Made by a program: the position numbers and the translations under genes. The notes under the pieces are model-generated. The model searched no databases. It was not told the DNA's origin and worked only from the letters and a program-made list of their open reading frames with translations. Source: a virus. From it: a DNA stretch of 64,000 nucleotides. Positions within the stretch are counted from its first letter, which is position 1. Every line of letters begins with the position of its first letter. Location of the stretch: positions 1 to 64,000 of the IMG/VR virus record IMGVR_UViG_3300043436_001797, one strand, 5' to 3'. This document shows, one piece after another, positions 9,431-62,714 of this stretch.

Positions 9431-9723
9431 TATACTATACATACAAAATAGATTATACGGACAATAATGGGCACGTTTCTACTGTGTCTCAAACAAGGGC
9501 TTGTGAGGATATAGACTATCCTACCAGTTTAGATGATACAAAACTTATTGTTCAGCAACAAGCATGGGCTTTGAATAACTTTAGTTTAGTAACAACGTAT
9601 ACTGAAACAACAACTAATATTACTCTAGCTCAATACAACGCTATTGTACTAGATCCAACATCAGTAGAATCTATTCCTGATTGGGATCCAAATGACCCCA
9701 TAATTCCACAATATGAAAATTAA
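9427..9723 (+). CDS. Putative fibre assembly/chaperone protein
   Basis: Small acidic ORF overlapping the fibre stop codon; assignment from position only. Confidence 0.4.
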   Translation: MIYYTYKIDYTDNNGHVSTVSQTRACEDIDYPTSLDDTKLIVQQQAWALNNFSLVTTYTETTTNITLAQYNAIVLDPTSVESIPDWDPNDPIIPQYEN

Positions 9724-17131: not shown

Positions 17132-17794
17132 ATGGCTAAGACAAACATCGAAAAGACACCTCCAAAAGGAGAGATCAAGTTCTCAATTACTCTTTCAGAA
17201 GAACAGAAAAAAGCTAAAGAACTGATTATCAGTACACCTTATAATTTTCTTATTGGATATGCTGGTAGTGGTAAGACTTTAGTTGCTGTACAGATAGCCC
17301 TAGATCTTTACTTTAAGAGAAGAGTAAATAAGATTATTATAACCAGACCTACAGTTTCTACTGAGGATAATGGGTTTCTTCCTGGTTCTGAGAAGGAAAA
17401 GATGGAACCATGGTTAGTTCCGATTAAGTCTAATATGAGAAAAGTCTATGACAAACCTGATATCCTAAACAAGATGGAAGAGGAAGGTCAAATAGAACTT
17501 GTGTCCCTTAGTCACTTTAGAGGTAGAACCTTTGAGAACGCTGTGTGTATAATAGATGAGTTTCAGAATCTAACTAAAGCACAATTACAAATGTGCGTAG
17601 GTAGATTAGGTAAGGGTTCTATCATGATATTTACAGGTGATTTACAGCAGATTGACCTTAAGATAAAAAGTGATTCTGCTATTCATGATATTCCTAAAAT
17701 TGAAAAATCAGCATTTGTAAATAAGATAGTTCTTACAGAGAATCATAGACATGAAGCTCTAAATGAAATACTCAAACTATTAAATGAGTACTGA
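17132..17794 (+). CDS. phoH: PhoH-family ATPase
   Basis: GYAGSGKT, ITRP, GFLPG..EKM, RGRTF, IIDEFQN, GDLQQID. Confidence 0.92.
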   Translation: MAKTNIEKTPPKGEIKFSITLSEEQKKAKELIISTPYNFLIGYAGSGKTLVAVQIALDLYFKRRVNKIIITRPTVSTEDNGFLPGSEKEKMEPWLVPIKSNMRKVYDKPDILNKMEEEGQIELVSLSHFRGRTFENAVCIIDEFQNLTKAQLQMCVGRLGKGSIMIFTGDLQQIDLKIKSDSAIHDIPKIEKSAFVNKIVLTENHRHEALNEILKLLNEY

Positions 17795-32412: not shown

Positions 32413-32556
32413 ATGTCACAGTGTCCAAATTGCGGAGCAGCTATGAGCTGCGGATGTCAAAAGAAAGTACTTTCTAATGGTAAAATAGGATGTACTAAAT
32501 GTGTTAATCAAACTTCTACAGCAGAGGCAAAAGAAACTGAAACTAAGAAAGAATAA
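32413..32556 (+). CDS. 47-aa Cys-rich protein (not in the ORF track)
   Basis: MSQCPNCGAAMSCGCQ..GCTKC; TAAACCAA leader and TAATG coupling. Confidence 0.7.
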   Translation: MSQCPNCGAAMSCGCQKKVLSNGKIGCTKCVNQTSTAEAKETETKKE

Positions 32557-46655: not shown

Positions 46656-47249
46656 ATGATGAGGAACTTTAGAAAACCGGATCTTGCTGCTCCCCGATTC
46701 AGACCAAAAGCTTTCAATGTTCTAAATAAAGAACTCTGGAAAGAATTTAAGGAGAAGTACCCGAAGTATAAAGATCTTACTTACATGGACTTCAAGAAGA
46801 TTATAAAGCTAAGTAACCAGAAGTTCTGGGAAAAGGTAATCTCTTATAGAGATGGTGTTGAGTTACCTGAGAGTCTAGGTTTTATTTTTATAGGTACGTG
46901 TACATCTCAGAACCCTAAAAGAAAAAACATAAACTATGGTAAATCAATCAAGTACGGGTTTGAGGTAAGCAACAACAATCTTATTTCTGACGGAAAGCTA
47001 GCTAAGATTTTTTATACAAACTACGCGGTTAAGTATAAAGTTAGAGATAGAGAGATCTGGACGTTTACTCCTTGTAGATCTTTTAAGAGACAGGTTGCTA
47101 AGACATATCCAGAAAACTGGGAAAAGTATATTGAGGTTCCGGATAATCTTAAGATATCCAGATTGTATAATGAACTGATTTCTAAAGACGTAGAAAAGAA
47201 AGAAGTCTCATCAGCAATTATAAACTATAACGAATTTGATTTAAGCTAA
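46656..47249 (+). CDS. IHF/HU-like basic protein
   Basis: GVELPESLGFIFI..FTPCRSFKR, HU-like arms; gene order before the tail genes. Confidence 0.6.
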   Translation: MMRNFRKPDLAAPRFRPKAFNVLNKELWKEFKEKYPKYKDLTYMDFKKIIKLSNQKFWEKVISYRDGVELPESLGFIFIGTCTSQNPKRKNINYGKSIKYGFEVSNNNLISDGKLAKIFYTNYAVKYKVRDREIWTFTPCRSFKRQVAKTYPENWEKYIEVPDNLKISRLYNELISKDVEKKEVSSAIINYNEFDLS

Positions 47250-47923
47250 TGACTACAATAGGAGAGAGCATATCAAGGGTTAGAAACTTGGTAAAAGCAG
47301 CAAAGCAGGATGCTTTTATGACTGATAGATTTATCTACAGTCTTATTGTAAAGTATGCTAAGTTGTTGATTAAGAGACAAGACGCTCTTAATGTAAGACT
47401 TAAGTTCGCAAGTCTTTTTAGAACTCTCCCTTGTGTAGAGTTAATTGAGACCGACAGAGTTGAAGCTTGTTGCGGAAGCTTACCTGACACTTGTAAGGTA
47501 ATGCGCACTAAGGAAAAGATTCCAGTACCTTTTGAGGGAGCTTATGGTGCTTTTATTAGAACGGTCTCATCTATAGACGGATCAGTTGAGGTTTACAGAA
47601 CTCAACCCGCTCAATTTACATCTATGACTAAGACTACTGCTTTTAAGTACAACAAGCAGAAGTACTACTGGTATATGAATGGTTATTTATATCTACCGAA
47701 CATTGAGTGGGAAAGCATTTTGCTAGAAGGGATATTTGAACAAGACATTGCAATATTTACATGTGCTGCTGACGGTATTTGTAAAATACGCCAGAATGAT
47801 ATCTTAGGTATTCCTGATGACTTGTTTGCTGAGATTGAGCAACAGGTTATGTCGCAGTTGTTGGGTACTGCACAACTTCCAACGGATATTAATATTTCTG
47901 ATAAACAAAACGTTCTAAGATAA
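47249..47923 (+). CDS. Tail ring protein
   Basis: TDRFI..R..LPCVEL..YLY..EGIFE pattern; gene order. Confidence 0.6.
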   Translation: MTTIGESISRVRNLVKAAKQDAFMTDRFIYSLIVKYAKLLIKRQDALNVRLKFASLFRTLPCVELIETDRVEACCGSLPDTCKVMRTKEKIPVPFEGAYGAFIRTVSSIDGSVEVYRTQPAQFTSMTKTTAFKYNKQKYYWYMNGYLYLPNIEWESILLEGIFEQDIAIFTCAADGICKIRQNDILGIPDDLFAEIEQQVMSQLLGTAQLPTDINISDKQNVLR

Positions 47924-48837
47924 TGGATTACAACTACACCCTGAAATACAGGACCTTTGATTCTCTTCTTGAGGATGTTAAGATGGATCTTAGAAACTTG
48001 TCAGCTGATACAAGTATTGAACCCGGACAACTTATCAAAGTAGCGCGTAAGTGTAACTACGATTTGGGTCTTCGTATTCAAAGAAGTAGAGAGACTGTTC
48101 TTGAGATAGAAAAAGGTAAAGCTCGTCTACCTGAAGATTTTCAGGTAATGAACTTTGCTCTTATGTGCGGTAACTATGTTGTAGTAGAAGTTCCCCCACA
48201 GGGAACTAACGTTCAAGAAGTCACTCCAGGATATAGACCTTGGATAGATGCTAACCTTTGTTCTGATGTAAATGGAACGTGTCCGGAAACAACTTGTATG
48301 ACTGAATGCAATCAGTCGTATAAGCTTATCCAGATGGTAAACTCAGTACGTAGAGAATATACTACTTTCTCTCCTATCACTTTTAGAAGCTCTCAGTTTA
48401 TAGATGTTGATTGTCCAAACACCTGTTCACCTCGTTGGCAGAACAGAGATGAAGCGTACATCAAAGATGGTTGGGTGTTTACAAACTTTACTGACGGACA
48501 TGTGTACATTAACTATCAAGCAGATATGGTTGATGATGAAGGTAATCTTATAGTACCAGATCATCCCATGTTGAATGAATACTATGAATATTCTTTGAAG
48601 AAGAGAATACTAGAAAACCTTGTAATGGATAATGTAAACGTTACAGGTCAATATCAACTTGTATCTGCTGAACATAGAGTTGCTAGAAACGCAGCGTTTA
48701 GTATTGTGAATACTCCTAACTTCTCTGAGATGATGAAGGTGTGGGCGATGAACAGAAAAGCAATGTACTCTAAGTACTACAATATGTTTAAGAGCTACTA
48801 CTACCCTCTTAATTTACGAGTTAATAACGCTATTTAA
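47923..48837 (+). CDS. Tail tubular/adaptor ring protein
   Basis: LEIEKGKARLPEDF..TNF.DG.VYINY..DDEG..VPD; immediately before the muzzle gene. Confidence 0.65.
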   Translation: MDYNYTLKYRTFDSLLEDVKMDLRNLSADTSIEPGQLIKVARKCNYDLGLRIQRSRETVLEIEKGKARLPEDFQVMNFALMCGNYVVVEVPPQGTNVQEVTPGYRPWIDANLCSDVNGTCPETTCMTECNQSYKLIQMVNSVRREYTTFSPITFRSSQFIDVDCPNTCSPRWQNRDEAYIKDGWVFTNFTDGHVYINYQADMVDDEGNLIVPDHPMLNEYYEYSLKKRILENLVMDNVNVTGQYQLVSAEHRVARNAAFSIVNTPNFSEMMKVWAMNRKAMYSKYYNMFKSYYYPLNLRVNNAI

Positions 48838-48839
48838 TT

Positions 48840-51800
48840 ATGGCAAAGAAACAAGGTAATACTCCAGAATCTGGAATCAGTTCTAACTCAGGATCTTTTA
48901 CCAAAGGTCTTGTAAGAGACTTTGATGAAAACTTTGATCCCGAAAGTTCATGGCCATACGCACGTAACGCTTCAAACAATTCTAAAGAAGGTGATGTTGG
49001 TGTCTTAGGTAATGAACCATCAAACTCTGCATGCGGAGTTGCTCCCTACACAGTTATTGGTAGAATATTTTTATTCAATGCTTACTGGGCAATATTTTCT
49101 ACCGATGATAGCAACTCTGAAATAGGTGTGTATGATGAGTCCCTCTGTCAATATAGAACTGTAGTTAACCAAAAATGTCTAAACTTTAGGAAACTAAATC
49201 TAGTAACAGGGGTAGCTAAAGAAAACTTTGATTGTCAGTGGGCGGTTTATTTTGCTGATGGTAGAAATCCAGACAGATATATAAACATAGGTAACCCCGC
49301 ACTGTGGCCAGATACACCATACCTTGGTAATAACTATTATCAAAATAATGTACTGTGGCCAGGTGTACAGTGGATACAAGACTGTCAAATTATAAACAGT
49401 TGTACAATATGTGAAAATACCAACAGTTTAGATTGTGAAGAAATCAGAATCAATAAACTTGTTAATACCCCTTGTGTTAAAGTTAGCGCTAAAGAAGGTG
49501 GCGGTAACCTAGCTAATGGTTCTTATGTTGCTTTTATAGCATACTTAGAAAATGGTCAGAAGTATGGAGACTATACATCACCCTCTAACGTACAACCTAT
49601 ATTTGATCACGACAATCTTGGTGGTTCAATTACTGTAGAAGTATCTAATCTTGAAAATAAGTCTTTTACTGAGTTTGAACTAGTTATTGCTGCGACAGTA
49701 AATGGGCAAACTGTAGCAAGAAGAATAGGTCAATATGCTTGTTCCGATGGACCTGTATTGGTATATCTTGATAGTATAAACGACTCGTTACCTACGGTAC
49801 CTCTTGAGTTACTTCCTATAAGATCACCATTGTATGAAACATCAGATTCTATTTTTGAAACTGGAAGCTACCTTCTTAAAATAGGTCCTCGTACAACTTT
49901 TGATTTTAACTATCAACCACTGGCAAATCAAATTGAAGCTAAGTGGGCAATTGTAAGATATCCGTCAGATTATTACAAGAGTGTAGGTAGCAACACAGGT
50001 TATATGCGTGATGAGGTATATTCATTTTTTATAAGATGGATTTACGCAACAGGAGAAAAATCTAAGTCATATCATATTCCTGGAAAGATTGGAGATAGTA
50101 AGGATACTACACAATCTATAGGTATATACTCAGCAGAACTAGAATACGGTTTTGAAAAAGAAAATACAGCTACTATAACTAGTACGACTACATATTCTTT
50201 ATCAGATGGTGGTGTTGTAATAGCTGAAGGTACAATGGGTTACTGGCAATCTTCTGAAAAGTATCCAGATAGAAATCCTGAGGTTTGGAATTCTAGTTAT
50301 GATCCTAGAATATCAGGTACAAGTCAAACTACATGGGATCTTTGTAACCAACCTATCCGACATCATAAGATGCCGGAAGATGTTATTTCTAATGATTTAA
50401 AATATACAAGAGCTGTTATTTTAGATTCTGCTGGTAATATTGTTCCATCACCTAAGTACACTGGAGCTACTCACATTCAGATAGTTGGTGTAAAGTTTTC
50501 AAACATTAAACCTCCTGTTTATATAGACGATGATGGAAATACTAAGGTTATTCCTGGTATTGTTGGTTATGAGATTCTTCGTGGATCACGAACAGGAAAC
50601 AAGTCCATTATAGCAAAGGGTATTATAAACAATATGCGGAGCTATACTGATATTGATGATACAGAAGGTCTTTATGCAAACTATCCGTTTAATCCTGTAA
50701 AGGATATAAGTGGAACAATTGATCCTACACTATCAATTACTCCGGTTAATGGTAATGGTAGTAATTACACCCCTGTAACAGAATCACATGTAAAGAAAAA
50801 CTTTTTAACCTTTCATTCTCCGGACACTAGTTTCTATAAACCTTTCTTAGCTGTAAAAGAATTAAAACTTTATACAGAGTTAGGAAATCCTGGTAATGCA
50901 AAAGGAACATTTGAACCAGTACCCGGACATCCCAAGGAAAAACTTTTAAGCAATGTTTCATCTACAACAGCAATGATACTTGGTATAGCTGAAGCAATCT
51001 TTGCAATGAAAGGTGAAGAAGGATGGGAAGGAGAAGAATCAAGATCACTTAATATAGGTCTTGGTGGTACGATGGTTATGCCAACCCCAGGAGGAGTCTT
51101 TGGTGCACCTAGTTTGATGTATCCAACTTTCGGTGTACCTGGTGGTAATGTGTATGAAGGACTTAAACAAGCACAGGTGCTTGGACAAACAGGTCTCAGT
51201 GCATCAGCTCAAGGATTGACAGGTGGTTTAATGTCATTAGGTGGAGCGGGTATGGTGACAGGTAATAATGCTCAGTTATTTTACATGGGCGATAAACTTG
51301 CATCAAATGGGTACGCACTTGCAGGGGGATATATGGGACCTACAAGAAGAAGAATGCACAAAGAAGGTGTTATGTCAGGTCTTCCACTTATAGCAAATAT
51401 TTTTGCGGTTGTTCCTACATTGTATACACTAGCTACAAACGCAGCATCTAAAACAATTGACCTAATATATGCTTTTGTAAAAGCTCGTAGTTATGTCTAT
51501 AGATTTATTTCCCACGGGTTTTTACATAAAGACAATTTACCGCCAGCATCCAGAAGGCATTATATAAATGATGTCGCATATTTAAATGAAGGTTTTAATA
51601 TGTTTGGTGGGTATAAGATCAATAATATTAACAGATTTAAAACTACAGTATTAACTACCGCAAATGATGTGGCGTTACCTAACATTGTAGATAATACAGG
51701 TGTAAGCATTAGCAGAAATGTAAGTTCTAATGTTACAGCTGCTACAATGGATCCATCGCTTACAGGGAAACCGGCTAGTGCTCCTGTAGCAGAACTTATA

Positions 51801-54101
51801 AAAACTATATCTATAACAGCATCTTGTTTTTATGCTGGTTTAAAAATTAGATTTAGAAACCAATACGGACAATTAGATCAGATTAGACAAATACCTTTAC
51901 CATGTCCGCATATTGTTAATAACAATAAACCTATTCCGGATTCTGCTATTGATGCTCCAGTAGGGTCCACTGTTACTATATTTAATGCTAATTACTCAAC
52001 TGATGTTTTATTTGGAGGTGACACATATATAGGCAGATACACAGAAAAGAATACTTTCTTTTATTTCTATGATTGGTTATATGGTCAACCTGATGAAACC
52101 CCATTTAATTATAGGGCTAAGTACTTGGGTTTATATCCTCGTTACTTTGCAGACTTTAGTAGATATGATATAGATGGGTTAATACCCACAATGCTGCAAA
52201 AGTTTAATCAACCTAATACATGGGATACACCCGCTAATCAAGTTAACTTAGAACAGGAATCTACACCCGTAGGTTTACTAGGATTAGTACGTATGGCTTT
52301 TAATAATGTATTACCTAATTTAATTGGTAATGCAGATGATAATAGTTATAGCAGCGGCGATAATAAATTTTCATTTTCTATAAGAAGAGGTTTCATGTAT
52401 CTCTTTAGCTCAGGTGTAAGGGATTTCTTTGTAGAATCTGATATTAACGTAGACCAAAGAGACTGGGGTGAACTTGATGAACAAAAACACTTTGAGGTTC
52501 TTTCTGACCTTAAAACATTGTTTGATACTAGAATTATTAGATTTGGTAACTACTACAAGATTGACCCATCTATTTCAGTATCAAAGCTTTACTACAGTGT
52601 AGTATCTTGGGGTAACATGCAAGATAGAGACTATAATCCTATGGTATCTGCTCTATGTTATAAGTACTTACCTAACAGAGTTATCTACTCGTTACCTACA
52701 GTTCTTGAAGGAAAGAAAGATGGTTGGAGAATATTCTTACCAAACAACTATAGAGACTTTAAGTCTAAGGTTACTGCTATTAGACCTATAGGTAAGAACG
52801 GAGCATTGATGCTCTTTGATAGAGATAGTCCCGTACAGATTCAGGGTACCGAAACTCTTGAGTCTGATATGGGAACTAAGATTACAGTAGGTGATGGTGC
52901 ACTGTTTAATAAACCGTTACAAGCACTTACAAACACAGACCAATCTTATGAGTATGGATCTTGTCAAGATAAGTTTTCAATTCTAAATACACCAGCAGGT
53001 ATCTACTGGGTATCTCAGTCTCTCGGAAAAATATTTTCAATAGGAAGCGGACTAGAAGAGATATCTGCTTCTGGTATGCGTTGGTGGTTTAGTAAGTTTT
53101 TACCTTACAGAATACTAGAGGATTTTCCAAACTTTGAAGCTACAGATAATCCGGTAATTGGTGTAGGTTGTCAAGCTGTTTATGATAACGACTTCTTGAT
53201 GATTTACTTTACTAAGAAGGACTATGAGCTTAGAAAAGATTTACCTGCGGGAATCAGTCTTACATATGTTGGTGGTGTAGATTTTATCTTGAACACAGGT
53301 GGTTCTTCGGGATCTTCTGGAGATAAAAATAATACAAGACCTAATGCTGCTAAAATTAAGTTAGGAGATCCTAATTACTTTAACGATGTATCATGGACAA
53401 TATCATATGACCCTAAGTCAAAAGCTTGGATCTCTTTCCACGATTGGCATCCGACAATGATGATCCCTAGTAACCAGAACTTTATAACTATTAATGATAA
53501 TACTTTCTGGAGACATAATAGTCGCACTGATAGTTTCTGTAACTATTATGGGGTTGATTATCCATTCCAGGTAGAGTATGTGGTAGATACAGGACAGACA
53601 GTAAATACTTTAAAGAGTATAGAATACTTACTTGAGTCATATGTATACGATATAGATGGTATTGATAGATTCCAGCTTTTAGACTTTAACTTTGATGAAC
53701 TTATTGTATATAACTCTGAACAAGTTTCTGGACAACTTAATCTCAATATGGCACCTAAGGATAATCCTTTTGCTAGATTGAATTATCCTGCTGTAACTGG
53801 TGCGGGGATAAATATTATGTACGAGAAAGTAGAGCAGAAGTTTAGAGTAAATCAGTTCTGGGACGTTACTGCAAATAGAGGCGAGTATGATGTAAATATT
53901 CAAAGACCGATTTGGTTAACTGGATGGGATGGATATAAGCGATCTTTGAATCCTGCTAACTTGAATTATGCTAAGTCAGTATTTGAAAGAAAGAAGTTTA
54001 GACATTACTACAACAACGTTCTGTTTACCAGAAAGGTTTCGGGTAATGCTAAAATGCTAATGAAGATATCTAACAACAAAAACTTGCTGTCACCGCGATG
54101 A
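48840..54101 (+). CDS. Tail stabilisation/muzzle protein (P22 gp10-like)
   Basis: 1753 aa; F.KGL.RD..ARN..G..GNE, YMRDEVYSF, NQYG, FGGDTYI, WTISY..WISFHDW. Confidence 0.75.
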   Translation: MAKKQGNTPESGISSNSGSFTKGLVRDFDENFDPESSWPYARNASNNSKEGDVGVLGNEPSNSACGVAPYTVIGRIFLFNAYWAIFSTDDSNSEIGVYDESLCQYRTVVNQKCLNFRKLNLVTGVAKENFDCQWAVYFADGRNPDRYINIGNPALWPDTPYLGNNYYQNNVLWPGVQWIQDCQIINSCTICENTNSLDCEEIRINKLVNTPCVKVSAKEGGGNLANGSYVAFIAYLENGQKYGDYTSPSNVQPIFDHDNLGGSITVEVSNLENKSFTEFELVIAATVNGQTVARRIGQYACSDGPVLVYLDSINDSLPTVPLELLPIRSPLYETSDSIFETGSYLLKIGPRTTFDFNYQPLANQIEAKWAIVRYPSDYYKSVGSNTGYMRDEVYSFFIRWIYATGEKSKSYHIPGKIGDSKDTTQSIGIYSAELEYGFEKENTATITSTTTYSLSDGGVVIAEGTMGYWQSSEKYPDRNPEVWNSSYDPRISGTSQTTWDLCNQPIRHHKMPEDVISNDLKYTRAVILDSAGNIVPSPKYTGATHIQIVGVKFSNIKPPVYIDDDGNTKVIPGIVGYEILRGSRTGNKSIIAKGIINNMRSYTDIDDTEGLYANYPFNPVKDISGTIDPTLSITPVNGNGSNYTPVTESHVKKNFLTFHSPDTSFYKPFLAVKELKLYTELGNPGNAKGTFEPVPGHPKEKLLSNVSSTTAMILGIAEAIFAMKGEEGWEGEESRSLNIGLGGTMVMPTPGGVFGAPSLMYPTFGVPGGNVYEGLKQAQVLGQTGLSASAQGLTGGLMSLGGAGMVTGNNAQLFYMGDKLASNGYALAGGYMGPTRRRMHKEGVMSGLPLIANIFAVVPTLYTLATNAASKTIDLIYAFVKARSYVYRFISHGFLHKDNLPPASRRHYINDVAYLNEGFNMFGGYKINNINRFKTTVLTTANDVALPNIVDNTGVSISRNVSSNVTAATMDPSLTGKPASAPVAELIKTISITASCFYAGLKIRFRNQYGQLDQIRQIPLPCPHIVNNNKPIPDSAIDAPVGSTVTIFNANYSTDVLFGGDTYIGRYTEKNTFFYFYDWLYGQPDETPFNYRAKYLGLYPRYFADFSRYDIDGLIPTMLQKFNQPNTWDTPANQVNLEQESTPVGLLGLVRMAFNNVLPNLIGNADDNSYSSGDNKFSFSIRRGFMYLFSSGVRDFFVESDINVDQRDWGELDEQKHFEVLSDLKTLFDTRIIRFGNYYKIDPSISVSKLYYSVVSWGNMQDRDYNPMVSALCYKYLPNRVIYSLPTVLEGKKDGWRIFLPNNYRDFKSKVTAIRPIGKNGALMLFDRDSPVQIQGTETLESDMGTKITVGDGALFNKPLQALTNTDQSYEYGSCQDKFSILNTPAGIYWVSQSLGKIFSIGSGLEEISASGMRWWFSKFLPYRILEDFPNFEATDNPVIGVGCQAVYDNDFLMIYFTKKDYELRKDLPAGISLTYVGGVDFILNTGGSSGSSGDKNNTRPNAAKIKLGDPNYFNDVSWTISYDPKSKAWISFHDWHPTMMIPSNQNFITINDNTFWRHNSRTDSFCNYYGVDYPFQVEYVVDTGQTVNTLKSIEYLLESYVYDIDGIDRFQLLDFNFDELIVYNSEQVSGQLNLNMAPKDNPFARLNYPAVTGAGINIMYEKVEQKFRVNQFWDVTANRGEYDVNIQRPIWLTGWDGYKRSLNPANLNYAKSVFERKKFRHYYNNVLFTRKVSGNAKMLMKISNNKNLLSPR

Positions 54102-57100
54102 AAGTTTCTAAGACAGGTTATAAGAAAAACTCTAAGGATAAGAACGAACCATCATTGCTTATCCCCTCTAATAGAATTACTATGAAGGGTGTAGAGTTTC
54201 CCGTGTACGGAATAGATGATACAGGATACTCTCAAATGATGTATCCTGGTTTAGATTACTCGTTTCCAGGTAGTTATGTTTATGAACTTCCTATGGCAAA
54301 AGAAGGTGGATACATACTTCCGGGTAGATATAAAAATCCAGAAGGTAACTGGTTGAATAAATATCAGTCAGATAAAAAATCAGGTCAGGTAAAAAATTAC
54401 TGGACATGGAATCCTAAAGCTACTTCCGAAAGAGATAGTATTCAAAATATTGCCGGCAATATATTAAACTATGAAATTCTAAGAGGTGGTCCAGGGGGTA
54501 GCCCGCTCACTTACTACAGTGATCCTGAGTATATGAATACCTTGATGAATGATATATATCCGCAAGTTAAAAAAATGATGCCTAATGCTACTCCCGTAGA
54601 AATGGGGGAAGCTATGGATCTTATTTTTAATAGTGGTTGGGATAAGAGCAATAAAAAAATATTAGTAGATCCTAGAGCATATGCTATACAAGAATACTAT
54701 AGAGTACATGATAAATCCAAACTAGATAAAGAAGGAAACTGGGCAGGTAGAAAAGCTACCCCCGGTACATTTGATAGTGAGTATGCTAACACTGTTGGTA
54801 AACTTTCTGAAAATGAAAGAAGGATTATGATGAATAAAGGGAGAGACTGGTTTTATCAACATAGAGCTCCTAAAGGATCAACCTGGGATTTAAAAACGCA
54901 AGGTGCTTATCCAGACTATGGAGCTACCTGGTATGGAAGAATATGGAATACTAATGATTACGCTCCATTTAATCCGAATAATCCTAAATTTATTTATCCG
55001 TATAAAACAGGCGGTGAAAAATGGTTAGATAAGTATCAAGGTAAAACTAGCGCTAGTGAGGTAAGTTCTTTAAAAGAAGAATCATATAGAACACCTTGGT
55101 GGAATCCTGAAAATTCATCTGAATGGAATCCAGCATGGACATCAGATCCAATTAGACAGAATGCACAAGCAGAGTTTCCGGGTACATATGTATTACCTAC
55201 TGTAGAGATTACAGATGAAAAACCGCAAAGGTTTAAAGATCAAGAAACTGCTGCCGTAGTTAGACAAGTTCTTCCAGATAGAACTATCTTATCAGCATCA
55301 GATGATCCAGAGAAAACATATGAGGATTTTATAAATAGTTCTCGTAACTATCGCAATGCAAAATTAAATGATACTCTAATAGATATAACTGATAAACCAA
55401 TGGGATGGTTTACTTTTAATACAATCCCAGGAGAGAAATACACAGATATATTAGGAAATAACTATATAGAAGTAAATAGGGGTGGAACAGGTAAACCAGA
55501 AGACTATGCTAAAAACTGGAAAACCAGAATGCAGGATCCTAAAGATACTTTTAGAAATAGTGATTATGCTGAAGACGCTGGAAGTTATTACCATAGTAAA
55601 GATATTCCAGCATTCTATGGTATAGAAAATAATAAGTTTAAAGTTGGAAACCCTGGAGATTTTAAAGATGATACAGTAATTGTTCCAGTAAGAAATAGCA
55701 CAACTCCATATAGTAAAGTCGAAGTTGAAAAAGGACTGTTTAAAGATAATTTATATACATATGATAAAGACGGAAATAAAATATGGAACTTACGGAATAA
55801 ACAAAAGTTTTTAGTACATTCTCCGGTAACAAATAGAACAATCTTTATATCTAAGGACAGTTACGAAAATCAAAATTCCAAAGAAAGTTATGCCACAACA
55901 AAAAAATCACTAGATGATTTTTCAAAAAATAATCCAGATGCTTATATCATATCTCTAGATGAAGGTAGATTTCGTGCCTACATGAATTCACCAGAAGGTT
56001 TAGATGATGAAAGTTTTAAGACCTGGAATGCATTTTCTGGTACAGTACTACATAATTATTTAGAAGGACTCGGTAAGGAAGCAGTAGATCATGGTCCCGG
56101 TACATCGGGTTCTCCTTTATATTCTCCTGTAGGTGATGAAAGATATGGATATAATCTAGGTATTCTAAAACAAAAACATGGAGGATGGCTAGATAAATAT
56201 CAATCTAAGACTACATCTGGTTCTGTTTCTAAATCTGGTCCAAGAATTGAAAACTTACCGCTTCAGAAGGTTGATAACAAACTAGAAATAGCATACGATG
56301 GAAGCACGGTATACCTACGTAAAATAGGTGAAGATAAGTTTACTACACTTAGTCCAGAAAAGTCTAAAGCTTTTATTCAGAAGTATCAAGAGCATATACC
56401 ACCTAGTTATTCTAAGGTTGAAGAACAGAAGAAAAAGCAAGCAGCTTATAATGCAAAGGTAGCTGCTGAAAAGAAAGAGATGGATGAGCTTCTTAAGTAC
56501 ACTCCATTAAAACTTACTAAAGAAGAAAAGGATAGAGTTCTAAAAGAGTCTAAAGATGCGCGAGCTGAACTAGCTGAGAAGAGTTGGTTAGACACAGCAT
56601 GGGATGCTACTAAAAGTGCATATGAATCTTTACCAGATGTTTCAGATTTTACTAACGCGGTTAAAGGTGCATATGAGTCTTTGCCTGATGCAGAAAATGT
56701 AATTAAGTTGATGAATTTATCAAACGAGGCAACAAAACTAGCAGCAGCTTATGCTTGGAATTATAAGATACCTGAAAATGATATACCTGGTTTAAGAAGT
56801 TTCGGTGAGCTTTCACCAAAAGAAATATATCAAAGTTTTGAAAATAGATTTATAGAAAAAAACTTTGGTGAGGATACACCAACAGGTGAGTCAAATATTG
56901 AAGAGCTTAATCTGATGTCAGAAGAAGATGTAACTTCTGGAACTTCAGATATGGAACAGTTAAATAAAAGTAGAGCTAAGTACGGACCACAGCGATTACC
57001 CGCAAGAAGAGATTCTAGAGGTAATATGTTACCATCATATCAACCTATTGGTGGAAATGATTCACTAGCTAGATTTAGCTACACATTTAACAATGATATT

Positions 57101-60100
57101 CTAGGTGCTGATACTTTACCTCCTACTCACTTTGTTACACCTAAAGTAAAAGAACTTACAGGAAATCCATCTAGACCAAGAAAATGGGAGAACGCATTTG
57201 CTGTAGGTGATTTCTTGAGAGATGCTGATATAACTGAAAATCAGTTTTATCACCCAGATAAATATTATGTGGGTACTTCTCTTAGCGCACTTCGTAATAG
57301 TGACCTAGGTATAAAAAGCAATAAACTCATAAGCGCTAGTAATCAACTACTTAATGATCCTGAAAAATACTGGGCGGTGTATAAATGGGATCCTGAAAAT
57401 CCTGCAGCAGCATGGGTTAGGTATATGAAAACTAATGAGATTAAGTCTAAGAAAGATCAGTTAGAAAAACAAGGATGGCATCTTGATATGCCTGTATCAG
57501 GTCAACATAGATTTGATGATGTTGATTGGGAAGGCAAAGGTTCAGACACAGGTTATAAAGCAGATTCAGAATGGGTACCGCTTAAAAAAGGTGCTAAAAA
57601 CATAAAGAGTCAAAAAGACGTAAATCATACTTATATACCACAGGGAACTAAAAAAGGTCAAGATAAAACATCCTATAATTTATTCTCTGGTGGATCTATA
57701 ACTTTTGTATGGACTGATCCTGAGACTAATGAAAAACTTGCGTCAACAGTAGCCGGTTCAGTTTCTGACATGAAACAGTATGGTGAAAAACTTAAAAAAG
57801 ATTATGGATTAAAAGAAGGTGATCTTGATATCATATACCATGATACAGGATCCTACTCCGCTAAACCAGCAGCTAAAAATGGTACATTATACTACGATCA
57901 ATGGAAAGACTTTAACGCATATAACAAAGGCTATTCCGGCGCAGCACTGATAGTACCTACACAAAATTGGTTAGAGAACTGGACACCTAATAAAAAAGAA
58001 GGAGGACAATTAGATAAGTACCAATCTGAGAATACAGGTGCTATAAAAAAAGGATGGCATCAAAAAGTTTATAATGATCCTATTGCATTTGCAAAAGCTA
58101 ATAAAGCTTTTAACGATAGTCTTAATCTTAGCAAAAGAAGTTACGAGCTTCTTAAGGATATAGCTCCTAACAGCTCATATAAAAGTAATATTCCCTATGA
58201 AGATGTACATTGGACAGCTGATGGACCAGGTGGTTATTTTATAGATAATGTTGACTTTGGTAGGCAGTTTTTAGGTTTAAATTACTTAACCGATACTAAT
58301 TTTAGAATACCTGGTACAAAAGAGCAACTTATCTTAGAAGAAGCTTTTTCAAAAAGAATAAAACCAATAGGTTTTAATACAACTGACGTTCCAGTACCTA
58401 TTTATAAACTACCAACTGAAGAACCTGTGTATGAAGAACTTAAAAACTTACCTTATCTAGATGCAAAATTGGAGCGTCCTGATTTTAACTTAGATATAGG
58501 TAAACCACCGGTAAAGTCTCAGGGTATTAGAATTAGACCTATGATGACTGCTGATCAAGCTACTAGTACTGGTCAGTATCAATCCGGTAAGTATATGTGG
58601 GATCCAGAAACAAAATCCTGGAAAGTCAAAATGCTAAGTCCTGAAACTCAACAAGAAAACAGAAAAGAGGTTAGAATAGGGATTAAAAAAAATGGTGGAT
58701 GGCTAGATAAATACCAAGATGGTAAAGAAGTAAATAAACCTGTTAGCGCAACATGGTCGGATGAGTTTGGTACTTACATGCTTCCCGAAGTAACTGTAAA
58801 ACCATCCATTAGTCCTGAAGCAACTCGAGCAATACTGAATAGAGAAGCGGGTATGTCTATTTCGCCTGCTCCGTCTGCGGTTGATAGAAGAGTAGCACAA
58901 ACTCAGTACATGTTATCTAACCCACTTGATGCGCTTGGTCATTACTCTAGATATGGTTATGTTCCGCAAGGAAACCTGGGTAACTATGGTATGAGAGAAA
59001 AATCAAGTCCTGTTGGTCAATTACTAATGGACTTCAATCCATACAACTGGGCAAACGCTGCATACAGAGCTGCTATAAGAGGTGGGGATCCTGATACGTA
59101 TACAACAGTTCCTGGTGCTATTAATATGGGTGCAGATTTAGCTGAAGCACTTCCTGTTATTTCTGAACTAGGTCCTTTGCTTAAAGGTGCTAAATCTGCG
59201 ACAGGTGAAGCAGGTAAATATCTTACAGCAAAAACTCCTTTAAAGTATACATACAGATTAAATCCCGAGGCTAGAGGTAGTGTATTCAAACCCTGGGATA
59301 ACAGCATGGGATACCGTGTGGTTAATCAAGAAGGTTATGATGATGCCGTAAAAAGTTTTCTGGTAAGATCAAATCCAAAAGGAGATAATACATTATTTTC
59401 AAGACCTACAGGTTTTCCTTCTTTTGCTAAAGGAAAACCTAGCAAGAACTTTTTTAAGACGGATAATACACCTCATTATATAATGGAAACAGATATTCCA
59501 CTGTATGCAAGAGGGGAAGCAAATCCAGTTACAGGGATACCGATTAAAAGTAGTCATGGAGCAGCAAGACCTATTGATCCTATAACCGGTGAAACCCTAA
59601 CTTCATTTCCAATAGAGGATCTAAACGCTATATATAGCGCACAACCCCATTGGTTAAAAGGTTATCAGCGTGTTTGGCAATCACCTAAAAATATTCAAGA
59701 ATTAGGTAATTTAACATTAGGAAAAAACATTGCTACATCGGGAGCCTTTAATAGAGGTGTCTATGAGTTGCCAGATTATCCTGGATATTTGTTAAAATAT
59801 GAAGATACGGATTTAGTTAGAAATATGGCTTTGCGTGATATTGATGATCTAAATTTTGCCGATCTTCAAATGAATCTAAACTCTTCAAATGTAGGAAAAG
59901 TAATCAAACACTTTAAAAAACAAACTCATCCTATTGATCCAATGCTTGCAGGTAGAGATATGGAAGGATATCTGCTGCGCAGGATGCAAGGTAAACCACT
60001 AGCTACACTACAATTAGATAGATTAAAAGATATTCCAGAAAGTGCTTTTATTCAGTATGCAAAAGATTATGATAATTTAGTTCAACAGAAACTAGCAATG

Positions 60101-61033
60101 GATAATTACGGGCATAATGTACTTTATGATCCAGAAGATGAAGTGTTTAAATTTATAGATTTATCTCCGGAGGCTAACTCTAATATGAGTGATTTTTGGA
60201 GTGAACATGTGATTGATAATATAAACTCTAAAATGCCTAGAGAAAAACAACTAACAGGTATTAAAGGAGCTATTCTTAACCAAATAGATAATAATGTAAA
60301 CATTAATATTGAAAAAGCTATGAAGGATCTTCCTGAAGATGCTGATTTGGAATATGCTGACAAATTAAGAATTGGGATGGAGTTATTGGGTCAAGCTAAA
60401 AAGAATAGAGTAAAAAGAGAATTAGAAAAAGCAGGTTATAAAAAACTAGGTGGGTGGCTTGATAAATATCAAATAAAAGGTGAAGTAACTCCTCCTGCTA
60501 ATCTCCCTTGGATTAATGGTGCAAGCATACCTCAAAAGCAATCGGTAGAGCAACAAGTTAATGCTTGGTTAGGTGAACCAATGAAAAGAGCTGCAGAGGA
60601 AGCGGAGAGAAGAGCTGAACAAGGGGAAGATGCAGGTGACTCTTTTAGACACTCTAATGCAGGTAGATTAACTCGTGAAGAGCTAGAAAAAAAGTTTCCT
60701 GAACTTATGTTGTATACAGGTATTCCACAAGTTGCATCATTCTTAGGAGCTACAGCTTTAGGTATTGGTCATGAGGTAGTAGCACCTAATAGATCTCCGG
60801 ATTATTCTTGGTGGGATACAGCTAGAGAAGCAGGAGAAGACATTATCAACAATACCATAGGAGCAACGGGTTTATTTTCAGAAGAAGATCTTTATAACAT
60901 GTATCTGAACAACCAATTACCTGATGGATATGGTAAAGGAAATATGTACTTCAAACAGAAAAAAGGAGGAGAAATGTCCCCAAGTATGGGATATTTTAAC
61001 TATATTGGTGGATATAGGGGTATGTTGCCTTAA
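54098..61033 (+). CDS. Modular cargo/effector polyprotein (2311 aa)
   Basis: Six [WQ]L[DN]KYQ linkers, five directly preceded by KxGG. GH108-like, ART-like, kinase-like and DUF6973-like segments. Confidence 0.7.
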   Translation: MKVSKTGYKKNSKDKNEPSLLIPSNRITMKGVEFPVYGIDDTGYSQMMYPGLDYSFPGSYVYELPMAKEGGYILPGRYKNPEGNWLNKYQSDKKSGQVKNYWTWNPKATSERDSIQNIAGNILNYEILRGGPGGSPLTYYSDPEYMNTLMNDIYPQVKKMMPNATPVEMGEAMDLIFNSGWDKSNKKILVDPRAYAIQEYYRVHDKSKLDKEGNWAGRKATPGTFDSEYANTVGKLSENERRIMMNKGRDWFYQHRAPKGSTWDLKTQGAYPDYGATWYGRIWNTNDYAPFNPNNPKFIYPYKTGGEKWLDKYQGKTSASEVSSLKEESYRTPWWNPENSSEWNPAWTSDPIRQNAQAEFPGTYVLPTVEITDEKPQRFKDQETAAVVRQVLPDRTILSASDDPEKTYEDFINSSRNYRNAKLNDTLIDITDKPMGWFTFNTIPGEKYTDILGNNYIEVNRGGTGKPEDYAKNWKTRMQDPKDTFRNSDYAEDAGSYYHSKDIPAFYGIENNKFKVGNPGDFKDDTVIVPVRNSTTPYSKVEVEKGLFKDNLYTYDKDGNKIWNLRNKQKFLVHSPVTNRTIFISKDSYENQNSKESYATTKKSLDDFSKNNPDAYIISLDEGRFRAYMNSPEGLDDESFKTWNAFSGTVLHNYLEGLGKEAVDHGPGTSGSPLYSPVGDERYGYNLGILKQKHGGWLDKYQSKTTSGSVSKSGPRIENLPLQKVDNKLEIAYDGSTVYLRKIGEDKFTTLSPEKSKAFIQKYQEHIPPSYSKVEEQKKKQAAYNAKVAAEKKEMDELLKYTPLKLTKEEKDRVLKESKDARAELAEKSWLDTAWDATKSAYESLPDVSDFTNAVKGAYESLPDAENVIKLMNLSNEATKLAAAYAWNYKIPENDIPGLRSFGELSPKEIYQSFENRFIEKNFGEDTPTGESNIEELNLMSEEDVTSGTSDMEQLNKSRAKYGPQRLPARRDSRGNMLPSYQPIGGNDSLARFSYTFNNDILGADTLPPTHFVTPKVKELTGNPSRPRKWENAFAVGDFLRDADITENQFYHPDKYYVGTSLSALRNSDLGIKSNKLISASNQLLNDPEKYWAVYKWDPENPAAAWVRYMKTNEIKSKKDQLEKQGWHLDMPVSGQHRFDDVDWEGKGSDTGYKADSEWVPLKKGAKNIKSQKDVNHTYIPQGTKKGQDKTSYNLFSGGSITFVWTDPETNEKLASTVAGSVSDMKQYGEKLKKDYGLKEGDLDIIYHDTGSYSAKPAAKNGTLYYDQWKDFNAYNKGYSGAALIVPTQNWLENWTPNKKEGGQLDKYQSENTGAIKKGWHQKVYNDPIAFAKANKAFNDSLNLSKRSYELLKDIAPNSSYKSNIPYEDVHWTADGPGGYFIDNVDFGRQFLGLNYLTDTNFRIPGTKEQLILEEAFSKRIKPIGFNTTDVPVPIYKLPTEEPVYEELKNLPYLDAKLERPDFNLDIGKPPVKSQGIRIRPMMTADQATSTGQYQSGKYMWDPETKSWKVKMLSPETQQENRKEVRIGIKKNGGWLDKYQDGKEVNKPVSATWSDEFGTYMLPEVTVKPSISPEATRAILNREAGMSISPAPSAVDRRVAQTQYMLSNPLDALGHYSRYGYVPQGNLGNYGMREKSSPVGQLLMDFNPYNWANAAYRAAIRGGDPDTYTTVPGAINMGADLAEALPVISELGPLLKGAKSATGEAGKYLTAKTPLKYTYRLNPEARGSVFKPWDNSMGYRVVNQEGYDDAVKSFLVRSNPKGDNTLFSRPTGFPSFAKGKPSKNFFKTDNTPHYIMETDIPLYARGEANPVTGIPIKSSHGAARPIDPITGETLTSFPIEDLNAIYSAQPHWLKGYQRVWQSPKNIQELGNLTLGKNIATSGAFNRGVYELPDYPGYLLKYEDTDLVRNMALRDIDDLNFADLQMNLNSSNVGKVIKHFKKQTHPIDPMLAGRDMEGYLLRRMQGKPLATLQLDRLKDIPESAFIQYAKDYDNLVQQKLAMDNYGHNVLYDPEDEVFKFIDLSPEANSNMSDFWSEHVIDNINSKMPREKQLTGIKGAILNQIDNNVNINIEKAMKDLPEDADLEYADKLRIGMELLGQAKKNRVKRELEKAGYKKLGGWLDKYQIKGEVTPPANLPWINGASIPQKQSVEQQVNAWLGEPMKRAAEEAERRAEQGEDAGDSFRHSNAGRLTREELEKKFPELMLYTGIPQVASFLGATALGIGHEVVAPNRSPDYSWWDTAREAGEDIINNTIGATGLFSEEDLYNMYLNNQLPDGYGKGNMYFKQKKGGEMSPSMGYFNYIGGYRGMLP

Positions 61034-61064: not shown

Positions 61065-62714
61065 ATGAAAAAAGAATTTTTAAAAATGGCTGGTGTAAAA
61101 ACAGAGCAAGAGTTCTATCGTAAGTATCCTAATGAAAAGGATTTCTTTGAAGCTCATCCAGATGCTTTGAAAAAACTAGCTCGTGGTGGTGAGGCATATC
61201 CACAAACTGCTACTATGGATAACTTCTTTAGTTACGGGGTACCAGTTCCACCTACTTACTATGCACATGGTGGTGCATTCCCTATGGCACAATCAGAGGA
61301 ACAGTTCTTCTCACCTTTCTATGGAAACGTACCTAACCCATACAACAAAGCTATGGGTGGAAGCTCTGAAGCGTATCCTCAGTCAATGTCTTTCCCATAT
61401 GGAAACACTGGCAGAAGCACACACTTTATGATGGAAGACGGTGGGGATATGCCAGAAGAACAAACTCTACCAAAGATGGGAGTCAATGGTAAACTCCTAG
61501 AGTTTGTAGGTACTGTTAAAAATACAGCTGCTAATAAACTAAACAGCAATCTTGCTAAATACGGTAAGGTAAAGAACCCAGAGCAGTATGAGTTTGAGAA
61601 AGCTAAATGGGGAGGTAATCTAAAAGAATATCAGACTAAGGAAACTGCAGGTGGTATTGACGATGTTGAATTGGTTGCTAAAAAAGGTCCAATTTTTGAA
61701 CCGCTGAATCTTCCTAAAGTTGATACTAATTCTGATGTGCCAGGAACCGCTAATTACTATGGAGAATATTCTCAAGGATATGGATCACCCTCTTTTACAA
61801 ATTGTTTTCCTGGAAATCCTAACTGCAATCAAGTATACGGTCAACTTCCTCCAGAATACTATAATGATATAGACTACCTGCGCGGTAGAAGAAGACCGTA
61901 TAGGGACTTTGATATCCGCGGTAAAGGTATGTTTGGTAAATATAGATCGACTGGTTGGTTGAAAGATGAGTATGGTTTAGAAGGACTGAGACAAATGGGG
62001 ATGACAGACATGCAGGAAAGTAATCCTAAATGGTGGCAGTTGTTAAAGCGTCCTACTAAAACATACATTTTTGACAGACAATATCAGCAACAGGGTCCTA
62101 ACGGGGAGTACAAATACAATCCAGTAAAAATTTACGATAAAGATGGAATGCCTGATCATAAAGCTCAAAACGCTTATGAGAATATGCTTAAACCAGGAAA
62201 TGAAAAGGATATGGGATTCTTTGCTAGGATGTTTCATAAATCAGGTAATGTAACTGGTCAAGGAAGAGATGTAATGCCAGGAACACCTTCAGATCCTAAT
62301 GCTGAGATGTCTCCTCAAATGACAAGTGCATTTGATTATAAAGGATATAATCCAAATTACTCTGAAGCAAGAAATCAGATTTTCCAAAATAAAAGACAAA
62401 AAATAGGAAAGCAGCTAGATAAACTTTATCAAAAAAGAGCCGATATGGAGGATATGGGTCTTACTATTTCTGATAAAGATGAGCGTAAAATGAAAAGACT
62501 AGGTAATAGATTTAACCGCAAAGGAACTGGTAAAGGAGTAAACTATAGTTTTGATACTTATGAAGAACCTACACCTGCTCCTGGATTTGCTTATGGTGGA
62601 TATACAACATATGCAAAAGGTGGCTCATACAACGCAGGAGATGTCGTAGATATGACTCCTGAAGAGTTGCAGAGATTTATTGAAATGGGCGGTCAAGTAG
62701 AATTCTTAGACTAA
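61065..62714 (+). CDS. Putative cargo protein with multiple xxxGG motifs
   Basis: LARGG, YAHGG, KAMGG, MEDGG, AKWGG, FAYGG, YAKGG, IEMGG. Confidence 0.7.
   Translation: MKKEFLKMAGVKTEQEFYRKYPNEKDFFEAHPDALKKLARGGEAYPQTATMDNFFSYGVPVPPTYYAHGGAFPMAQSEEQFFSPFYGNVPNPYNKAMGGSSEAYPQSMSFPYGNTGRSTHFMMEDGGDMPEEQTLPKMGVNGKLLEFVGTVKNTAANKLNSNLAKYGKVKNPEQYEFEKAKWGGNLKEYQTKETAGGIDDVELVAKKGPIFEPLNLPKVDTNSDVPGTANYYGEYSQGYGSPSFTNCFPGNPNCNQVYGQLPPEYYNDIDYLRGRRRPYRDFDIRGKGMFGKYRSTGWLKDEYGLEGLRQMGMTDMQESNPKWWQLLKRPTKTYIFDRQYQQQGPNGEYKYNPVKIYDKDGMPDHKAQNAYENMLKPGNEKDMGFFARMFHKSGNVTGQGRDVMPGTPSDPNAEMSPQMTSAFDYKGYNPNYSEARNQIFQNKRQKIGKQLDKLYQKRADMEDMGLTISDKDERKMKRLGNRFNRKGTGKGVNYSFDTYEEPTPAPGFAYGGYTTYAKGGSYNAGDVVDMTPEELQRFIEMGGQVEFLD

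Follow-up and report, generated by a model that had tools for sequence, protein, structure and literature searches.

P0001 is the product of a long open reading frame (ORF) that follows the muzzle gene of a crAss-like phage and whose chain is punctuated by a short recurring peptide, W-L-(D/N)-K-Y-Q. The DNA that was analysed (hereafter 'the window') comprises 64,000 nucleotides (nt), positions 1 to 64,000 of the IMG/VR virus record IMGVR_UViG_3300043436_001797; the parent virus record is 81,817 nt in length and is estimated to be 68% complete. The ORF of P0001 occupies 54098..61033 on the + strand and is stop-free over 2311 amino acids (aa), its start overlapping the stop of the muzzle gene by 4 nt, and its product, described here as a cassette-built putative virion cargo protein, matches no Pfam family (E <= 0.01) and no PHROG family. 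Directly upstream, within 47249..54101 on the same strand, lie the genes for tail ring protein 2 (47249-47923, +; Pfam PF25702, 1.1e-20), tail ring protein 1 (47923-48837, +; PF24228, 4.1e-13) and the muzzle protein (48840-54101, +; PF25731, 1.7e-27). A crassvirus major capsid protein is also encoded in the window (24123-25751), and the PHROG tally includes a portal (17784-20000, assigned through that tally alone) and a terminase; the source of P0001 is an uncultured crAss-like phage. The Bacteroides phage crAss001 has its muzzle gene, gp44, ahead of gp45 and gp46. The products of the latter two have been found in virions, where they are known as cargo protein 1 and cargo protein 2 (Bayfield et al. 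2023, PMC10172136). Because ring 2, ring 1 and muzzle genes stand upstream of P0001, and the muzzle-then-cargo order is that of crAss001, P0001 can be placed in the cargo slot, as an earlier note on this DNA had suggested; its position and the comparison with crAss001 are the grounds for regarding it as probably packaged into the virion and delivered from there.

The recurring peptide in P0001

Six copies of the peptide are found in P0001, all encoded on the + strand: copy 1 (WLNKYQ, aa 85-90, nt 54350..54367), copy 2 (WLDKYQ, aa 309-314, nt 55022..55039), copy 3 (WLDKYQ, aa 697-702, nt 56186..56203), copy 4 (QLDKYQ, aa 1304-1309, nt 58007..58024), copy 5 (WLDKYQ, aa 1535-1540, nt 58700..58717) and copy 6 (WLDKYQ, aa 2120-2125, nt 60455..60472). 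Five of the six are preceded by K-x-G-G, and a last KKGG is found at residues 2288-2291 (nt 60959). All of these lie where the earlier note had placed them, the K-x-G-G starts that it listed (55004, 56174, 57995, 58688 and 60443) being exact. The two glycines directly abut the motif in four of the six copies; copy 1 is preceded by EGN, with GG 15 residues upstream, and copy 2 by GGEK. Across all six frames of the window, the pattern L[DN]KY[QK] has no further occurrence, and a looser pattern is absent from every other ORF of 100 aa or more that reaches past nt 60000 of the 81,817-nt record. When P0001 was scored with a position matrix made from 206 motif instances of its relatives, the six sites reached 17.0-33.2 bits and the next best site 4.1; in 200 shuffles of P0001 the best site had a mean of 1.2 and a 95th percentile of 8.5, with one outlier at 22.6. 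The codons used vary among the six copies (Leu by TTG, TTA, CTA or CTT; Lys by AAA or AAG; Tyr by TAT or TAC; Gln by CAG or CAA). Since the codons differ between copies, the repeat is kept at the protein level and a repeat at the DNA level is ruled out; it is as a peptide that the motif is selected.

A probable seventh joint is the variant junction WLKGYQ (aa 1852-1857, nt 59651..59668, +). Its matrix score is -1.0, and it is regarded as a variant joint because it coincides with a pile-up of 44 similarity-break ends in aa 1851-1875 and because its W, L, G and Y are each conserved at 90% or more in the alignment of this region (alignment A4). Side by side arrangements of the motif also occur: at 57968-58024 (+) a degenerate W-L-E-N-W stands 13 residues ahead of motif 4 (GGQLDKYQ), and some relatives contain clear tandem pairs of the form NWLNKY-AGGGDISIPDLSRPK-WLDKYQ. 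Such tandem pairs look like the trace of an end tag fused to a start tag.

Modules and predicted folds

The seven inter-motif segments have no similarity to one another (best mutual BLASTP E-value 0.33), which agrees with the earlier description of them as unrelated. Structures were predicted with AlphaFold2 (AF2) for aa 1-320, from the 24-row alignment A3 (mean predicted local distance difference test score (pLDDT) 68), and for aa 1520-2135, from the 12-row alignment A4 (mean pLDDT 50). A 47-row whole-length alignment (A2) superposed non-homologous modules and was dropped in favour of the single-region alignments A3, A4 and A5. The N-terminus is formed by a small beta module (aa 15-66, nt 54140..54295, +), predicted to have six strands at pLDDT 75-84. 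An alignment of 52 fragments revealed this module to be a chassis part that is common to most relatives and internal in some of them, and its signature was detected in 81 of the 203 proteins collected. Next comes a stretch with a pLDDT of about 33 (aa 69-109), within which motif 1 is predicted as a lone helix at residues 85-90.

Module 2 (aa 110-293, nt 54425..54976, +) is helical and resembles the lysozyme superfamily (GH108/chitosanase-like), its helical domain at aa 110-285 being modelled at pLDDT 83-96. Structural comparison using VIA-align gave Z scores of 4.3-6.9 for the top 13 rows, which lie under the tool's caution line of Z 8 and are nonetheless mutually consistent: all 13 are chitosanases, GH108-type SagA, 2nr7, 2ikb, Sen1395, the wall hydrolase VgrG3 or phage endolysins. 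The Glu of a Y-E-x-x-x-G-G element in this module is invariant in ten sequences. Module 2 has no Pfam match, a profile from alignment A5 searched against PDB sequences gave a chance row alone (E 0.68), and a Foldseek search of the PDB with the model of aa 1-320 gave no match at E <= 0.001; the lysozyme-like assignment is a tentative one. Motif 2 follows as a lone helix (309-313) in the low-confidence tail of the model.

The second module with an enzyme-like fold is protein-kinase-like (aa 1859-2116, nt 59672..60445, +) and was modelled at pLDDT 60-82. It gave at least 500 Foldseek matches in the PDB at E <= 0.001, and the best 50 rows are protein-kinase domains or enzymes that contain one (among them GCN2 at 9.4e-6, OspG at 3.3e-5 and PknB). 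The A4 consensus retains, in order, a Lys (YLLKYE), a D-x4-N loop (DNxGxNV) and a DFG-like Asp (FKFIDL); as modelled, aa 1859-2116 is a bilobal protein-kinase-like fold. Among small matches, the Shigella effector kinase OspG is the nearest. Where the earlier note had read enzyme motifs in several segments, folds of an enzyme-like kind are therefore predicted for at least two, the lysozyme-like and the protein-kinase-like.

No fold could be assigned to four further modules, all on the + strand. Module 3 (aa 315-692, nt 55040..56173) is found, among the relatives compared, only in P0039 and P0043. Module 4 (aa 703-1299, nt 56204..57994) has inner break points near aa 980-1000, and its last part (aa 1116-1291) is widely shared. 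Module 5 (aa 1310-1530, nt 58025..58687) is followed by module 6a (aa 1541-1851, nt 58718..59650), which was modelled at a pLDDT of about 30 and of which the stretch around aa 1690-1860 is widely shared; the whole of aa 1520-1802 is poorly modelled from A4. Comparison of aa 1541-1860 with the ESM Atlas gave best scores of 0.84, 0.80 and 0.77, all below 0.9 and to be taken as leads only. The last of them is PF14021 (TNT), from which an ART-like reading of aa 1735-1858 is a weak lead. The C-terminal module 7 (aa 2126-2311, nt 60473..61030, +) is widely shared, likewise has no assigned fold and had no ESM Atlas score above 0.76. Across the whole of P0001, a phmmer search against PDB sequences gave no match at E <= 1.

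Like motifs 1 and 2, motif 5 (a helix at model residues 16-21) and motif 6 (a short helix) are found in low-pLDDT stretches. All four motif copies that are covered by AF2 models (1, 2, 5 and 6) are thus predicted as short helices with a pLDDT below 50 between better-modelled parts, which places the motifs in linkers outside the domains; the earlier note had likewise treated them as separating the segments.

Relatives of P0001 and the placement of the peptide

A tblastn search of P0001 against 50,697 phage records gave no match, and a search of IMG/VR for related loci gave seven pattern matches, none of which was confirmed. Word-indexed searches recovered 37 longer and 24 shorter relatives, and an exhaustive phmmer search with aa 1112-2311 as the query found 532 cluster representatives at E <= 0.001, the best 150 of which were taken as listed relatives. 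A single alignment covers at most 37% of P0001 in every relative from the word searches: relatives share individual modules, and the orders and partners of these vary. The partner domains are mostly cell-wall enzymes (Amidase_2, Phage_lysozyme2, YkuD, NlpC/P60, PG_binding_1 and SLT), with SET also present.

Under a strict pattern, a set of 38 long proteins that includes P0001 yielded 51 instances of the motif, spread over 22 of them. Conservation per instance is high for Trp (49/51), Leu (51/51), Tyr (51/51), Lys (48/51) and Asp or Asn (47/51), whilst Gly is found at position -1 in 30 and at -2 in 27 of the 51, the others reading GGSxK or DLSRPx ahead of Trp. The conserved stretch is W-L-D-K-Y-Q, followed by small or acidic residues. 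A loose pattern gave 302 instances in 114 of 201 relatives, compared with 19.0 in shuffles.

The peptide is not confined to junctions. It stands at the C-terminal end of 63 of the 201 relatives and at the N-terminal start of 27 (defined as the motif right behind Met plus 0-3 residues), with 15 proteins carrying it at both ends. The C-terminal copies are placed strictly: in 55 of the 63 exactly one residue lies past Tyr (Lys in 41, Asn in 10, Glu in 3 and Gln in 1), and four further copies stop at Tyr itself. At inner copies the residue after Tyr is Gln in 104 of 212 and Lys in only 6. The relatives that begin M-x-WLDKY fit the earlier suggestion of a common WLDKYQ tag.

A scan of IMG/VR with back-translated GGWLDKYQ, a pattern that fixes the Gln, identified 36 contigs against a chance expectation of about 1 (a rough hand estimate). 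The ORF stops right past the motif in 18 of these 36, and several such ORFs open with M-x-x-WLDKY. The 36 contigs represent a second crAss-like lineage, in which ring 2, ring 1 and muzzle (PF25731, 2.1e-36) genes are followed by a 288-aa gene, then by a motif-bracketed protein of 258-800 aa that has the N-terminal beta module of P0001, and last in order by a gene with a near-invariant start that matches the window ORF 61065-62714.

Cassette exchange at the peptide

The earlier note had asked for orthologues to be compared for module swapping at the linkers. Across 292 BLASTP matches from 199 relatives (P0052, an identical fragment of the window, and P0063, a subtilase, being excluded), there are 462 inner match ends, counting as inner those over 30 aa away from either terminus of P0001. 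As a descriptive comparison, 138 of the 462 (29.9%) lie 15 aa or less from a motif against 8.3% under uniform placement, and 207 (44.8%) lie 20 aa or less away against 10.9%; the numbers of relatives that break within 20 aa of motifs 1 to 6 are 78, 20, 5, 45, 20 and 33, respectively. The linkers are thus conserved and the breaks cluster at them, as had been anticipated. On these comparisons, the modules of P0001 are unrelated, swappable cassettes and the motif marks the places where relatives exchange them.

That similarity breaks at the motifs is also what would be seen if the peptide were a passive joint, neither bound nor cut: a conserved hinge or helix cap that lets neighbouring cassettes fold and unfold independently for passage through the tail. 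We regard this as quite unlikely, and we rate no higher its companion idea, that the peptide serves as a common in-frame seam for the swapping of cassettes by recombination. The tandem pairs and the genes that end in the motif do resemble products of fusion and fission at a seam, and the more distant relatives have alternative joints of similar use, also short (WLDQY, WLDTY and [LV]PKAQxG, sometimes combined as GGWLDSYDVPKAQNG). However, because the codons differ between copies the seam would offer little DNA identity for recombination, an invariant W-L-x-x-Y is not needed for a hinge, and neither the strict placement at protein ends nor the rule of Lys after Tyr is explained.

Is the peptide a cutting site?

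Gly-Gly-directed maturation of viral polyproteins is known from the adenovirus protease, pS273R of African swine fever virus and Ulp1-like C48 enzymes, in which GG does not vary and the residues ahead of the cut confer the specificity. The earlier note had proposed cutting of this kind for P0001, which does have GG ahead of four of its six motifs in a long multi-module viral protein. This proposal was not supported. Unlike those systems, the P0001 family can dispense with GG, which precedes the motif in 27-30 of the 51 instances, and the residues that are conserved (a nearly invariant W-L-x-K-Y) come after it. No such protease gene was found: profiles PF00770, PF02902 and PF03412 (for C5, C48 and C39 peptidases, respectively) had no match at E <= 1 when the 81,817-nt record, with an estimated completeness of 68%, was searched in six frames. 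The motif is, moreover, retained at free ends (63 + 27 of 201), where no cut is needed to separate modules. In P0001 itself no peptidase domain, zincin-like MPTase included, was found in Pfam at E <= 5, about 1,200 aa of the protein being without a fold assignment, which leaves room for a hidden peptidase.

The sole peptidase in the Pfam tally of the 38 window ORFs is a subtilase of family S8 (9713-11764, +; 683 aa; Peptidase_S8 7.8e-36, CARDB 2.1e-10), whose gene precedes the packaging genes. Of five other motif-bearing records, one, that of a close relative, has the S8 gene; it is absent from four, two of which are 98% and 100% complete. The S8 subtilase was accordingly rejected as the motif protease, because its gene does not travel with the motif.

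A broader version of the processing idea leaves the position of the cut open: a protease of phage or host would cut the chain at this peptide or beside it (GG|W, Y|Q or Q|x), either inside the head or once ejection has taken place, and the modules would come free as separate enzymes that share an end peptide. In other respects this is the model of the earlier note, and we consider it unlikely. Several observations would suit such a site. The motifs are in linkers that are exposed, and the modules on either side would have separate sites of action (cell wall and cytoplasm), the conserved W-L-D-K-Y-Q stretch matches sequence-specific protease sites in length, and natural C-termini lie at Tyr plus one residue, which is where a product would end. 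The phage encodes the S8 enzyme, and Leu at P4 with Tyr at P1 would suit a subtilase. In addition, polyvalent proteins are predicted to be cut into units (PMC5512222). Set against these are the lower conservation of GG, the negative peptidase searches of the record and of P0001, and the missing S8 gene in the complete and nearly complete records. A mere separator should also decay at free ends, where it is instead kept, together with its rule of Lys after Tyr. Finally, cleavage of cargo protein 1 (C1) goes unmentioned in the available part of the crAss001 text, which models one chain from tail to capsid (PMC10172136). Taken with its retention at free ends, the peptide looks more like a handle or tag than a cutting site.

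A proposed docking or loading handle

The reading we prefer, to which we would give a little less than an even chance, is that P0001 is a cassette-built cargo protein and that the peptide acts as a module-autonomous tag, in all likelihood a handle for docking or loading. P0001 would be a polyvalent protein made of a conserved chassis (the N-terminal small beta module and the shared C-terminal module), exchangeable cassettes (lysozyme-like, protein-kinase-like and at least three further modules) and floppy linkers, each linker carrying one W-L-(D/N)-K-Y-Q that is predicted to form a lone helix of one or two turns. This helix would be the docking handle that is held by a virion component during assembly, so that the tags would load or order whatever stands between two of them in the cargo space. 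The chain may stay whole and be threaded out from N to C, as has been proposed for C1 of crAss001; a cut would not be required.

A number of points weigh against this reading. No binding partner has been found for the peptide, and P0001 lacks the terminal ..GWLDNYK tag that is found after module 7 in most relatives. A handle needs one or two copies, and six per chain could as easily be separators. Part of the reason for the linkers' low pLDDT may be the thin alignments used (24 and 12 rows), in which some rows are misaligned. The enrichment of breaks at motifs is descriptive only, since match ends are non-independent and the relatives are kin, and breaks also occur away from motifs (aa 51-75, 976-1000 and 1651-1725). 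With regard to the structural precedent, BLASTP of P0001 against gp45 gave nothing below E 0.1, and hhalign of the beta module against gp45 gave a probability of 0.7%.

The handle could, alternatively, be read on the other side of the envelope. Colicins carry short Tol or TonB boxes in disordered translocation domains, and the peptide might similarly be an epitope that a factor of the host envelope or cytoplasm reads after ejection, pulling the chain in or placing the modules. Its character (a short aromatic peptide, glycine-flanked, in a disordered linker rich in Gly, Ser and Lys) and the fact that the cargo has to cross the envelope would both agree with this. It is nevertheless improbable: no host is known, colicins need only one box, the motif could be linked to no host protein here, and its presence in phages of many samples would demand one very conserved host target. 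A handle that is read within the virion remains the preferred interpretation.

Comparison with crAss001 and other known systems

The closest structural precedent for such a handle is C1 of crAss001 (gp45, PF25725). Its gene, like that of P0001, stands right behind the muzzle gene, and C1 is a long, partly disordered virion protein for which a threaded exit by way of the tail has been proposed, features that P0001 would share. In the cryo-electron microscopy (cryo-EM) model, the domain with which C1 binds the portal comprises residues 425-552 and C1 is modelled as a single uncut chain running from tail to capsid; storage zones are described in the available part of the text, whilst the mechanism of the cargo is hypothetical (Bayfield et al. 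2023, PMC10172136). The gp45 sequence has no WLDKY and contains GGWL twice, at residues 155-158 and 427-430, the second of which opens the Pfam CARG1 domain (424-555), which is the portal-bound part; in this one solved structure the GGWL segment is thus ordered where it meets the portal. Besides the two GGWL, gp45 (encoded at 6988-9516 of crAss001, L038) has five [FY]-x-G-G or [FY]-G-G pieces, and the glycine pieces flank the tail-barrel-bound helix and the portal-bound domain. In C1 proteins of six other gut crass phages, a GG-hydrophobic-L/I element is found at the start of the domain in five and G-G-Y-M in the sixth, and [FY]-[AS]-x-G-G lies right behind the domain in all six. Because these glycine motifs are conserved in C1, glycine-ended punctuation of structured pieces can be regarded as a trait of crass cargo proteins, one that P0001 has in common with C1.

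Differences from C1 are also clear. P0001 is 2.7 times longer and has enzyme-like cassettes, and the full W-L-D-K-Y-Q with its placement at protein ends is found neither in crAss001 nor in the available part of its description (PMC10172136). Profile PF25725 (crAss_CARG1) had no match at E <= 5 in P0001, P0045 or P0046, the control gp45 scoring 2.3e-66. Homology of P0001 to gp45 is therefore unsupported by BLASTP, hhalign and PF25725, and, as there is no detectable sequence relation, the structural precedent is an analogy.

In its building plan P0001 most resembles the polyvalent proteins, in which many unrelated effector-type domains are joined in one polypeptide encoded beside virion genes, with strong mosaicism and lysozyme-type modules, and for which delivery together with the DNA has been predicted (Iyer et al. 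2017, PMC5512222, in the part of the text available). P0001 has two unrelated domains of predicted effector type beside virion genes, and its modules are shuffled among relatives. Polyvalent proteins are tied together by a zincin-like MPTase that is thought to process them, a domain not detected in P0001, and within the same portion of text a conserved junction or terminal peptide does not form part of the concept (PMC5512222). The building plan is thus known from polyvalent proteins (PMC5512222) and crass cargo proteins (PMC10172136), and a peptide at junctions and ends appears in the consulted parts of neither text. A literature search did not find WLDKYQ, WLNKYQ or GGWLDKY; 'wldky' matched unrelated texts.

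Two further systems are worth comparing. Ejection proteins of the T7 gp16 type are ejected with a cell-wall hydrolase (muralytic) domain, and one motif-bracketed relative of P0001 has an SLT domain, its database matches including 'internal virion protein D'. The T7 gp16 type differs from the P0001 family in that it has a fixed single architecture, without cassette exchange and without a junction peptide. Short peptides that mark head cargo are familiar from the capsid targeting sequence of the T4 internal proteins and from the head-protease processing of the phiKZ inner body. Such tags occur singly, at the N-terminus, and a known prohead protease takes them off; trimming of packaged proteins can occur at a short motif. 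The motif of P0001, unlike them, stands at both ends and between modules, and no prohead protease is known for it.

Neighbouring genes

The gene that follows P0001 (61065..62714, +; 549 aa) begins MKKEFLKMAGVKTEQEFYRKYP and encodes a protein with no Pfam family, which is not crAss_CARGO2. The first approximately 40 residues of this product recur almost unchanged on other crAss-like contigs, in the gene next to the one for the motif-bracketed protein on its downstream side: 61065-61190 (+) and the corresponding genes of L004, L007, L008, L010, L011, L013 and L021 share the start M-K-x-x-x-L-K-x-A-G-V-K-x-E-x-E-F-Y-x-K-x-P. This start spans two crAss-like lineages and closes with a KKAQxG-type joint, whereas the remainder of the protein has only 20-24% identity. 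Fusion of this N-terminal domain to motif proteins was found in none of the 203 collected proteins. A complex prediction for the first 60 residues of the protein with P0001 aa 1520-1569 scored 0.09 against a mark of 0.32, in a run without controls, and speaks neither for nor against contact between the two.

Past the end of the window (record G000, 62720-81817), four giant ORFs of 1136, 1126, 1852 and 2231 aa come after the cargo genes, the last of them, of 2231 aa, running to the end of the record. They occupy the place of the virion RNA polymerase subunits in crAss001, and the motif is in none of them. Upstream of the ring genes, 38828-46537 (+) encodes a 2569-aa protein with a Fibrobacter succinogenes major domain (PF09603, 1.7e-20), which is probably a tail fibre or receptor-binding protein. 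Within the virion gene block, a von Willebrand factor A domain is encoded by a 932-aa ORF (32556-35354, +), which also matches Sortilin-Vps10 weakly.

A general loading code?

The docking reading can be extended to a bolder possibility, which we hold with rather less confidence: that W-L-D-K-Y serves a large branch of the crAss-like phages as a general loading code, by which any cassettes that it flanks would be caught by one virion component, stored and ejected in order. If this is true, it would hold for separate genes and for the beads of a polyprotein alike, and it would amount to a plug-in system that delivers arbitrary enzymes, such as cell-wall hydrolases and kinases, into the host before the DNA.

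Crass-like phages are among the most abundant known viruses. A six-residue peptide that stands at cassette borders and at both ends of proteins offers a concrete handle on how their cargo is chosen, stored and ejected, and its reach extends to 532 relatives of the C-terminal half alone (E <= 0.001) and to two crAss-like lineages. Such a peptide is accessible to mutation, can act as bait and can be looked for in maps from cryo-EM. From it one may also predict which unassigned modules are injected, including a virion-borne protein-kinase-like domain, and, if it is a loading tag, it could serve to load foreign proteins into such phages.

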